Source: Pyrinomonadaceae bacterium
GTDB taxonomy: Bacteria; Acidobacteriota; Blastocatellia; Pyrinomonadales; Pyrinomonadaceae
NCBI GenBank assembly: GCA_045807745.1
Contig: JBJMGT010000015.1
Span: 197,948 to 261,947, forward strand
DNA: 64,000 nucleotides
Direction of reading: 5' to 3'
Shown here: piece by piece, positions 12,808 through 55,268 of the stretch
Layout: each line of letters opens with the position of its first letter
How positions within the stretch are numbered: the stretch's first letter is position 1
Notes under the pieces: generated by a model
What the model was told of the DNA's origin: nothing
The model's input: only the letters and a program-made list of their open reading frames with translations
Databases searched by the model: none
Translations under genes and position numbers: made by a program

Positions 12808-12878
12808 AGTGACAAGTGACGACTGACAAGTTGAGTGTGAATCTTAACTCGTCACTCGGCACTTGTCACTTGTCACTG
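12807..12878. repeat. heptamer-tandem hairpin element (GTGACAA type) at the 3' end of nuoN
   Basis: cagtgacaagtgacgactgacaagttgag - loop - ctcgtcactcggcacttgtcacttgtcactg. The arms are built from tandem GTGACAA-like heptamers. It overlaps the nuoN stop codon. A near-identical copy sits at 63283-63356. Confidence 0.7.
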
Positions 12879-21086: not shown

Positions 21087-21090
21087 CAAA

Positions 21091-21177
21091 GGATGAAGAA
21101 TGAAGGATGAAGGATGAATAAGTACAAAGCTCGTTCATCCGTCTTGTCTTCATCCCTCATCCTTCATCCTTCATCCT
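21091..21177. repeat. heptamer-tandem hairpin (GGATGAA type) between nuoG and nuoH
   Basis: ggatgaagaatgaaggatgaaggatgaa - loop - ttcatccctcatccttcatccttcatcc. It abuts the nuoH start codon. Confidence 0.75.
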
Positions 21178-21182
21178 TTCTT

Positions 21183-25437: not shown

Positions 25438-25523
25438 GATTTCGGAATGCGGAATGCGGATTGTGGAATGAAGCGAGCGCGATTGCTGTTTAACCGCAAT
25501 CCGCATTCCGAAATCCGCAATTG
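25438..25523. repeat. heptamer-tandem hairpin (GGAATGC type) between nuoD and nuoE
   Basis: tttcggaatgcggaatgcggattg...gcaatccgcattccgaaatccgc. It lies between the nuoD stop (25526) and the nuoE start (25435). Confidence 0.7.
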
Positions 25524-26746: not shown

Positions 26747-26754
26747 CGTTAAAA

Positions 26755-26826
26755 GTGCTGAGTGCTGAGTGCTGAGTGCTGAGTCTGAGCTTTGACACTC
26801 AGCACTCAGCACTCAGCACTCAGCAC
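26755..26826. repeat. perfect heptamer-tandem hairpin (GTGCTGA)x4 - loop - (TCAGCAC)x4 between nuoC and nuoD
   Basis: gtgctgagtgctgagtgctgagtgctga gtctgagctttgacac tcagcactcagcactcagcactcagcac. A 28-bp perfect stem that directly abuts the nuoC stop (26827) and the nuoD start (26746). Confidence 0.85.
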
Positions 26827-27372
26827 TTAAGTTAAGCTGTACGGCTCGTAGCCGCGCAGCGGAAAATCTTTGCGGAGCGCATGTCCCTGCCAGTCGTCGG
26901 GCAGGAGAATGCGGCGCAAGTCTGGGTGACCATCAAAGACGATGCCCAGCAGATCGAAGGTCTCGCGTTCGTGCCAGTTGGCCGTGCGCCAGACGCCGGT
27001 GACAGTGGGCACATGCGCGTCGTCTTCGTCTAGTAAAACTTTCAGGCGCAGCCGGTGATATTTCGTTGTCGAGAACAGATGATAGTTGACGGCGAAGCGC
27101 GGCTCTTCTTCCGGGCCATTATCCGTGCCGCAAAGATCGGCGAGCAGGTTAAACTCCAAACCCGGCGTCGTCTTCAAGTATGAACAGATCGTGACGATCT
27201 GCTCGCGCGGCACGATGACTGTGATCTCGCCGAAAGCCTGCATGACATCGGCGACCCATTCGGCGTGCTCCTGTCGCAGCGACTCGATGAGCGGCAGCAG
27301 CGCCGGATATTCCAACGGCGTCCCCGTAGTCTCTTCGGCCAAACTCTGTGCGCGCGCAATATCTTGGCTCAT
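26827..27372 (-). CDS. nuoC: NADH-quinone oxidoreductase subunit C (30 kDa)
   Basis: Conserved NuoC. Start re-placed at MSQDIARAQ (ATG 27370-27372). The track's N-terminal extension translates the TTGTCCG repeat. Confidence 0.88.
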   Translation of the reverse strand: MSQDIARAQSLAEETTGTPLEYPALLPLIESLRQEHAEWVADVMQAFGEITVIVPREQIVTICSYLKTTPGLEFNLLADLCGTDNGPEEEPRFAVNYHLFSTTKYHRLRLKVLLDEDDAHVPTVTGVWRTANWHERETFDLLGIVFDGHPDLRRILLPDDWQGHALRKDFPLRGYEPYSLT

Positions 27373-27475
27373 TGTCCGTTGTCCGTTGTCCGTTGTCCGT
27401 TGCTCAAGCTCATCCGTTGCCGCTAACAACTACAAGCATAACGACGGACAACTGACCACTGACAACGGGCAGTCT
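27373..27475. repeat. heptamer-tandem imperfect hairpin (TTGTCCG/CGGACAA type) between nuoB and nuoC
   Basis: (ttgtccg)x4 at 27373-27400, paired with gacggacaactgaccactgacaacggg at ~27443-27469. On the mRNA the run AACGGACAACGGACAACGGACAACGGACA is directly 5' of the nuoC ATG. Confidence 0.65.
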
Positions 27476-52731: not shown

Positions 52732-54627
<1,896 letters not shown>

Positions 54628-54806
54628 AAAAAATTCCCGCGCCAAACAACGCGGGACTTCTGAGCGAATCGAAGTTGACGGACTCTTAAAAGCGCCGAGC
54701 TGTTTAGCTGTTTATTTTACGTGGCCGCAAGTCGCCTTAACTCACCACGTTTTTCATCCGCGCTTATACGCCGCGCGGTATGTCCCTGTCAAGTTTGTAT
54801 CGGGTA
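54628..54806 (-). promoter_or_regulatory. leader of the yitJ-like gene with a near-consensus sigma70 promoter and a terminator-like hairpin abutting the start codon; candidate riboswitch or attenuator
   Basis: On the minus strand: TTGACA (54787-54792), an 18-bp spacer, then TATAAG (54763-54768). The leader contains stem-loops (acgtgg...ccacgt). It ends with GAAGTCCCGCG-ttgtttgg-CGCGGGAATTTTTT immediately before the ATG. Confidence 0.45.
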
Positions 54807-55268
54807 CTACTTGCGCAAGGCGTTAATGACTTCAACCTCCTTGTCTGTCGGCAATCTTCCGACCCAAGCTTTCGTCACCACGCCTTGCGCGTTGACGAGC
54901 AAAAGCGTTGGCGTGCCGCTTATGCCAAGTGCGCCGAGCGAGGCTTGCCTAACATCTTTGATTGGCACGCCTAAGCGACTGAGATAGGCGCGACTGTCGG
55001 CCGCAGCGCCGGGCAAAATGGCGGCCAACTTGGTGTCGCTCTGCGCGCCTGGCTCTTTAATCAACTGTTGATAGAACGGGGCGCTGTCCGAACAGAAATG
55101 ACAGCCATCGCGCAGCATAAGTAAGAGGGTCTGTTTATTCTCCGCCCAATTCATTCCAGCAAGTTGGACGGTCGAGCCGACCGTTAGTCCGGTAGGCCTC
55201 GCTTGTGCAGCTAGAATTTTAGTGAAGTTGGTATATGGTAAAGACCATTTGTTGAGCAAACCATACAT
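54807..55268 (-). CDS. thioredoxin-fold protein with a CxxC motif
   Basis: 153 aa with CHFC and a cis-Pro-type loop GTPTLLLVN. TlpA/DsbA-like. Confidence 0.5.
   Translation of the reverse strand: MYGLLNKWSLPYTNFTKILAAQARPTGLTVGSTVQLAGMNWAENKQTLLLMLRDGCHFCSDSAPFYQQLIKEPGAQSDTKLAAILPGAAADSRAYLSRLGVPIKDVRQASLGALGISGTPTLLLVNAQGVVTKAWVGRLPTDKEVEVINALRK

Follow-up and report, generated by a model that had tools for sequence, protein, structure and literature searches.

The leader of the yitJ-like gene described here is, as judged from its letters, a member of the known SAM-II riboswitch class (RF00521, SAM_alpha), and it very probably works as an OFF switch that acts via transcription termination. 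In the window (the whole 64,000-nt stretch of Pyrinomonadaceae DNA that was analysed), RF00521 gave the sole Rfam match at gathering level. The match lies on the minus strand at 54758–54683, scores 44.5 bits against a gathering score of 36, covers the model in full (positions 1–79 of 79) and has E = 9e-7 for the whole 64 kb. A sequence-only reading of this DNA had proposed a SAM-related riboswitch, which a full-length RF00521 match before a methionine gene bears out. It had also left the element in an unknown or different SAM-responsive class, which is wrong given a match of full length and above threshold. Its suggested check, an Rfam scan with the SAM models, settles the class as SAM-II. The view that the leader is not SAM-I was sound, since SAM-I (RF00162) is absent from the gathering-level results for the window and, even with the cutoff relaxed to E ≤ 10, from 54500–54900. 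When the leader was scanned at E ≤ 10, other families were considered as candidates (SAM-I, SAM-II long-loop, SAM-V, the Leu leader and further Rfam families) and RF00521 alone was significant: SAM-V gave no match in the leader at that cutoff, the SAM-II long-loop family (RF01726) reached 14.6 bits against a gathering score of 44, and Leu_leader reached 14.7 bits against 50. Both the long-loop family and SAM-V are pseudoknot aptamers too and are grouped with SAM-II in a broader class (PMC5473149).

The intergenic region that holds the riboswitch (54628–54806, minus strand; 182-nt) is bounded by the stop codon of the upstream ORF (TAG, 54809–54807) and by the start codon of the yitJ-like gene (ATG, 54627–54625), and this start agrees with 80 orthologs. 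The gene (52732–54627, minus strand) encodes 631 aa, with a homocysteine S-methyltransferase domain (Pfam PF02574, 6e-77) fused to an MTHFR domain (PF02219, 5e-33). Since this fusion is the yitJ architecture, the label given to the gene from its translation is correct. The ORF upstream of the riboswitch (54807–55268, minus strand, 153 aa) had no Pfam match at E ≤ 0.001.

A promoter can be read directly from the minus-strand sequence, as had been claimed: the −35 hexamer TTGACA (54787–54792) is followed, after an 18-nt spacer, by the −10 hexamer TATAAG (54763–54768). The same arrangement, TTGACN-N17-19-TATAAG, is kept in 113 of the 131 yitJ-type leaders with enough upstream sequence, always 11–17 nt upstream of P1, and the promoter-region block GCGTATAAGCG is kept in orthologs. 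A generic promoter scan did not list the TTGACA-N18-TATAAG site because its rule demands T at position 6, the last base of the −10 element. From the position of these hexamers, transcription would start at ~54757, roughly 8 nt 5′ of P1. The earlier description of a structured leader stands, while its length of ~115 nt does not, the transcribed length being about 130 nt.

The aptamer occupies 54683–54758 on the minus strand in the RF00521 covariance-model alignment. Its P1 helix is formed by CGUGGU (54744–54749) and GCCACG (54720–54725), which are paired in 99.7% of cells in an alignment of 115 leaders and are invariant, so that P1 offers no covariation within the clade. Next to it, the L1 strand reads GAGUUAA (54737–54743, cmscan alignment), with GUU where the class has UUU. 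The 5′ strand of the pseudoknot (54727–54736) consists of GGC (P2a), GA and CUUGC (P2b), and its 3′ strand GCUAAACAGCU (54698–54708) contributes GC and AA to P2b, an unpaired U, and GCU to P2a. P2b is paired in 100% of cells of the 115 leaders and P2a in 96%. Both blocks of the ligand-contacting core, CUUGC and GCUAAA with its unpaired U, are present and invariant. The structural reference is metX SAM-II from the Sargasso Sea metagenome (2QWY), an H-type pseudoknot in which SAM sits in the P2b triplex. In the solved structure the L1 strand lies as a triplex in the P2b groove. The adenine moiety of SAM is stacked at the U-G step of CUUGC and forms a pair with U44, the base that GCUAAA leaves unpaired; the Us of CUUGC are paired in turn to the As after U44 (PMC3303485). 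The equivalents of metX U21/G22, U44 and A45/A46 in our leader are CUUGC and GCUAAA; all SAM-contacting bases of these two blocks in the solved structure are also found here, and we infer that the aptamer would bind SAM.

Downstream of the aptamer, the hairpin UCCCGCG-UUGUUUGG-CGCGGGA (54635–54656, minus strand) has 9 pairs, 6 of them G-C, and is separated by one A from a U6 tract (54628–54633) that adjoins the ATG. The GC-rich hairpin reported to abut the start codon is therefore present, with its U tract directly before the ATG. In 115 leaders the hairpin is paired in 99.3% of cells, and its loop is conserved as UUGUUUGG or UUGUUUAG in >170 leaders. Shuffled sequence contained a mean of 1.1 terminator-like sites, against one in the 1-kb stretch; as one such site per kb is the chance level, the significance of this hairpin rests on its near-invariance in >170 related leaders. 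A smaller hairpin, ACUUC-loop-GAAGU with a variable loop (54656–54675, minus strand), stacks on the terminator in the OFF fold and is paired in 92% of cells of the 115 leaders. At its closing pair a change from A-U to G-C was counted in 33 sequences, but in columns where the alignment of the metH-type rows is poor.

The 3′ strand of the SAM-II pseudoknot is also the 5′ strand of an antiterminator. The switching strand GCUAAACAGCUCGGCGCUUUU (54688–54708, minus strand), which can be held in the pseudoknot or serve as the 5′ side of the antiterminator, has its complement in 54641–54660 (minus strand), a segment made up of GAAGU, CCCGCG from the 5′ half of the terminator, and the loop UUGUUUGGC, and the two would form an antiterminator of roughly 20 nt. 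The duplex with 54660–54641 has 18 pairs and a predicted energy of −22.5 kcal/mol, compared with −14.4 kcal/mol for the terminator hairpin. RNAfold, which had been proposed for finding alternative terminator and antiterminator pairings, returns P1 plus the antiterminator as the minimum-free-energy fold of the leader (−42.7 kcal/mol), the terminator not being the best fold; in it the tail GCUAAACAGC-U-CGG-C-GCUUUU pairs with GAAGU-C-CCG-C-GUUGUUUGGC. The antiterminator pairs are standard in 98.5% of cells in the 115-sequence alignment, against 34–47% when the partner is slid by 1–3 columns. The suspicion that the hairpin is a regulated terminator or attenuator is thus supported by a conserved alternative pairing. 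For the OFF state as a whole, which comprises P1, P2a, P2b, the terminator and the ACUUC/GAAGU hairpin, the paired fraction in the same alignment is 98.0%. Covariation was sought for P1, terminator and antiterminator in a clade that is near-invariant, with 0 double-sided changes in the antiterminator pairs of the 115-sequence alignment, so these counts measure compatibility, not covariation.

Folding of the related leaders is consistent with a competition between the two structures. Of 172 distinct related leaders with the tail left free, 99 have the antiterminator as their minimum-free-energy fold, compared with only 33 of 860 sequences in which the terminator loop alone was shuffled. Once the 10-nt tail is made unavailable, as its capture by the pseudoknot would do, 163 of the 172 fold into the terminator. 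With the tail free, the terminator is kept in the minimum-free-energy fold of 71 of the 172 leaders, which indicates that little energy separates the two folds and that kinetics must decide the outcome. Conservation of the terminator loop is explained by its second role as the antiterminator partner, a constraint that an ordinary terminator would not have. Two leaders are exceptions to the common loop. In one (L031), the terminator 5′ half plus loop contains CGAGCU, complementary to the tail AGCUCG; in the other (L080), it contains GCUGUUU, complementary to the tail AAACAGC. As far as pairing can be read from the letters, complementarity in these two is shifted, not lost.

Based on these features, the following sequence of events is proposed. 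RNA synthesis would begin about 8 nt 5′ of P1. When SAM is abundant, it would bind the H-type pseudoknot formed between GCUAAACAGCU and the loop strand GGC..CUUGC. With the 3′ strand held in this way, the ACUUC/GAAGU hairpin and the CCCGCG/CGCGGG terminator would fold, and RNA polymerase would halt at the U6 tract, one base short of the yitJ-like ATG. When SAM is scarce, the free 3′ strand would pair with the emerging GAAGU-CCCGCG-UUGUUUGGC as the ~20-nt antiterminator, its tail invading the 5′ half and loop of the nascent terminator before the 3′ half is made, and read-through would allow the gene to be transcribed. An arrest of transcription at high SAM is the most likely regulatory outcome, and the layout agrees with what has been published for the class. 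A promoter a few nt before P1, many intrinsic terminators and downstream genes for methionine and SAM were described for SAM-II in 2005 (PMC1273637), and an order of promoter, aptamer and terminator ahead of methionine genes is the usual one in published descriptions of the class (Corbino et al.; PMC1273637, PMC2258182). Barrick and Breaker (2007) found SAM-II to be the class most often linked to terminators in Proteobacteria and wrote that its aptamer “enforces a distal pseudoknot” to communicate with the platform (PMC2258182). The metZ element of S. meliloti is predicted to operate likewise (PMC9373788).

Attenuation by a leader peptide was considered as another route to the same terminator and was rejected, the leader having no conserved uORF. 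Its only short ORF is a 6-codon MKNVVS frame over P1 (AUG AAA AAC GUG GUG AGU UAA; 54735–54755, minus strand); the AUG is missing in many orthologs and the frame is probably fortuitous.

Well-studied SAM-II elements such as metX act on translation (PMC3326309), and a switch that is mainly translational, in which the SAM-bound fold would bury the ribosome-binding site in the hairpin by the AUG and termination would play a lesser part, should therefore be weighed. The window itself would suit such a design: the last base of the hairpin lies 8 nt upstream of the AUG, and no purine-rich stretch other than GGGAA, in the 3′ half of the hairpin, is found close to the start. The abutting layout, with the U tract adjoining the ATG, is also present in four related loci (L001, L005, L006 and L069). 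In most orthologs, however, the terminator and the ATG are 60–145 nt apart, with aptamer, antiterminator and terminator unchanged, so the conserved function cannot depend on start-site masking, and the hairpin carries a canonical U tract. Whereas metX hides its Shine-Dalgarno sequence in the pseudoknot and thereby controls translation, the pseudoknot strand here is the antiterminator strand, which would place control at transcription. We consider a mainly translational switch unlikely, and the spacing in most orthologs identifies termination as the conserved mode. Because the 3′ half of the terminator and the U tract lie directly before the ATG, SAM-bound transcripts that escape termination are probably also translated poorly; a secondary effect on translation initiation is thus plausible in the window genome and in the four loci with the same layout.

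The reading as a SAM-II terminator switch draws much of its strength from relatives. The best 80 protein homologues from a species-representative genome collection share 78–94% identity with the window protein and all belong to Pyrinomonadaceae, Blastocatellia or unclassified Acidobacteriota, including Pyrinomonas methylaliphatogenes K22. Of the 80 upstream regions extracted (that of the window plus those of 79 of the 80 loci), 76 contain the aptamer sequence pattern. Among the four that lacked it, two are on contigs that end short upstream and two (L003, L038) match RF00521. All 18 orthologous loci that were scanned gave RF00521 above threshold (37.2–51.9 bits), 100–270 nt upstream of the gene, in agreement with the expectation that the leader would be conserved upstream of orthologs. 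Among orthologs, the stretch joining aptamer to terminator shows unconstrained variation in both sequence and length. The near-invariance of aptamer and terminator must thus be due to selection and not to a lack of divergence, although the apparent invariance is inflated for the metagenome loci, since the pattern used to retrieve them specifies part of the aptamer. In one Pyrinomonadaceae metagenome-assembled genome, an Acido-Lenti-1 RNA (RF01687, 40.3 bits, gathering level; L046:1433-1478) lies ~1.5 kb upstream of the yitJ ortholog.

A check of the leaders of other met genes for the same motif had been suggested, and in related metagenome contigs the aptamer and terminator stand before metH. 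When metagenome contigs were scanned for an exact pattern of the aptamer core, at least 120 loci matched. Among the matches listed, at least 104 have downstream similarity to the window protein: at least 57 with identity ≥60%, i.e., the yitJ-like gene itself, and at least 47 with identity of only about 31–40%, confined to the N-terminal domain. Three genes of the low-identity kind were examined in full and are about 1180 aa each. The one run against Pfam, in L093, has the five domains of the cobalamin-dependent methionine synthase MetH. The metH leaders have their own, different promoter, with aptamer and tail as in the yitJ-type leaders; their terminator is CCCCGCG-UUGUUU.AG-CGCGGGG, and GAAAGC takes the place of the yitJ-type GAAGU. 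The presence of the aptamer before both the yitJ-like gene and metH implies that in these bacteria two or more methyl-transfer genes would be under SAM-II control. These metH leaders represent a paralogous second SAM-II leader, seen in soil metagenome contigs (L081-L200, e.g., L093:4790-8468, L112 and L097). In two further loci the downstream region is different: in L190:2-1353, riboswitch and terminator are followed by an ORF of 405 aa that lacks a Pfam match and begins with a signal-peptide-like segment, and in L100:1-450 there is no clear gene within 400 nt of them.

The aptamer departs from the class in L1 and in P2a. The first of the three triplex uridines in L1 is a G here (GAGUUAA), and this variant is common to nearly all Pyrinomonadaceae leaders; in the portion of the alignment at hand, GAGUU was not seen in L1 among the 2005 seed alignment rows. 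P2a at its canonical position is GGC/GCU, 3 bp including one G-U that is unpaired in 13 of 115 leaders, and it has no covariation. Longer versions of P2a (AAGGCG/CGCUUU, or a partner past the variable hairpin) can be drawn in the window and were discarded, since they are not conserved across orthologs. These features, together with the ~20-nt antiterminator, might mark the Pyrinomonadaceae SAM-II as a distinct subtype with altered affinity or ligand preference, or might trace a horizontal transfer of SAM-II from Proteobacteria to Acidobacteriota; we regard either as quite improbable.

The L1 substitution and the minimal P2a could also mean that specificity has drifted, so that the element senses SAH, another SAM-related compound, or nothing. 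The first U of L1 contacts the SAM-pairing U44 in the solved structure (PMC3303485), and it is this position that is changed in a form not seen in the seed rows at hand. On the other hand, Pyrinomonas spp. (L040, L061 and L037) have a canonical L1, GAUUUAU, in an aptamer that is otherwise identical and precedes the same gene, and every other core base is canonical. Association with the yitJ-like gene and metH is what would be expected for SAM feedback, and strong purifying selection speaks against a dead element. A drift in specificity is very unlikely in our judgment, and a SAM-responsive SAM-II remains the preferred reading.

That the Rfam match arose by chance and the hairpin is a constitutive terminator or attenuator, e.g., of the upstream ORF, would accord with the one terminator-like site per kb in shuffled sequence and with a leader folding z-score of only −1.8, but it is extremely unlikely and already effectively refuted by the RF00521 matches in 18 of 18 orthologs and the compatibility of the antiterminator pairs, besides an E-value of 9e-7 in 64 kb for a full-length match above the curated threshold, the aptamer before metH, the conserved promoter between the upstream ORF and the hairpin, and a conserved terminator loop complementary to the aptamer tail. 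A role of the hairpin as the terminator of the upstream ORF in particular is rejected in view of that intervening conserved promoter and the co-occurrence of the hairpin with the aptamer before metH.

It is useful to place this SAM-II leader beside systems that are already known. Its closest counterparts are the alpha-proteobacterial SAM-II elements with terminators (A. tumefaciens metA and S. meliloti metZ), which belong to the same RF00521 family. P1 (CGUGGU/GCCACG) and the CUUGC and GCUAAA cores are identical, and both have a sigma-70-like promoter a few nt before P1, a terminator before the ORF and an association with methionine genes. They differ in that the host here is an acidobacterium (Pyrinomonadaceae) and not a proteobacterium or a member of the Bacteroidetes, L1 has GUU rather than UUU, P2a has 3 bp where 4–6 are typical, the terminator of this genome adjoins the ATG, and a yitJ-type fusion is the gene under control. 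In Bacillus subtilis, the yitJ S-box (SAM-I, RF00162) precedes a gene for a homocysteine S-methyltransferase-MTHFR protein and uses terminator/antiterminator logic. The kind of regulated gene, the presumed ligand and this logic are shared with our leader, whereas the aptamer folds are unrelated and no SAM-I match was found here at E ≤ 10.

Since the element passes the Rfam threshold, any Rfam-based annotation pipeline would label it. What appeared to be an unknown riboswitch thus becomes a routine annotation, and no new question is opened. The only mildly new point is the occurrence of SAM-II in an acidobacterium rather than in a proteobacterium. Early surveys of SAM-II name Proteobacteria and Bacteroidetes (PMC1273637, PMC2258182), and the literature searched contained no published report of SAM-II in Acidobacteria, Acidobacteriota or Pyrinomonas, which is not proof of novelty. 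The leader is of some value as a record of SAM-II in Acidobacteriota, and it suggests that SAM feedback on the methionine methyl-transfer step (the yitJ-like gene and metH) in soil Pyrinomonadaceae would use SAM-II. It also provides a clean and strongly conserved case of a SAM-II pseudoknot strand reused as an antiterminator, which could help mechanistic work because SAM-II termination is much less studied than the translational form.

The region between the SAM-II terminator and the ATG contains a further type of element in most yitJ orthologs (e.g., L007, L011, L013, L029, L047 and L064). It is an inverted heptamer array in which a 7-mer repeated 4–5 times, a short spacer and the reverse-complement 7-mer repeated 4–5 times would give long perfect hairpins. 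The heptamer differs between genomes (GTGACAA, CTACTGA, GCTAACA, GATTTTG and others). The yitJ leader of the window itself has no such array. Elsewhere in the window, heptamer arrays are present at 21089–21178, 25443–25521 and 26754–26827, with single arrays at 12847–12877 and 27372–27402, and they lie in short intergenic gaps just upstream of minus-strand genes.
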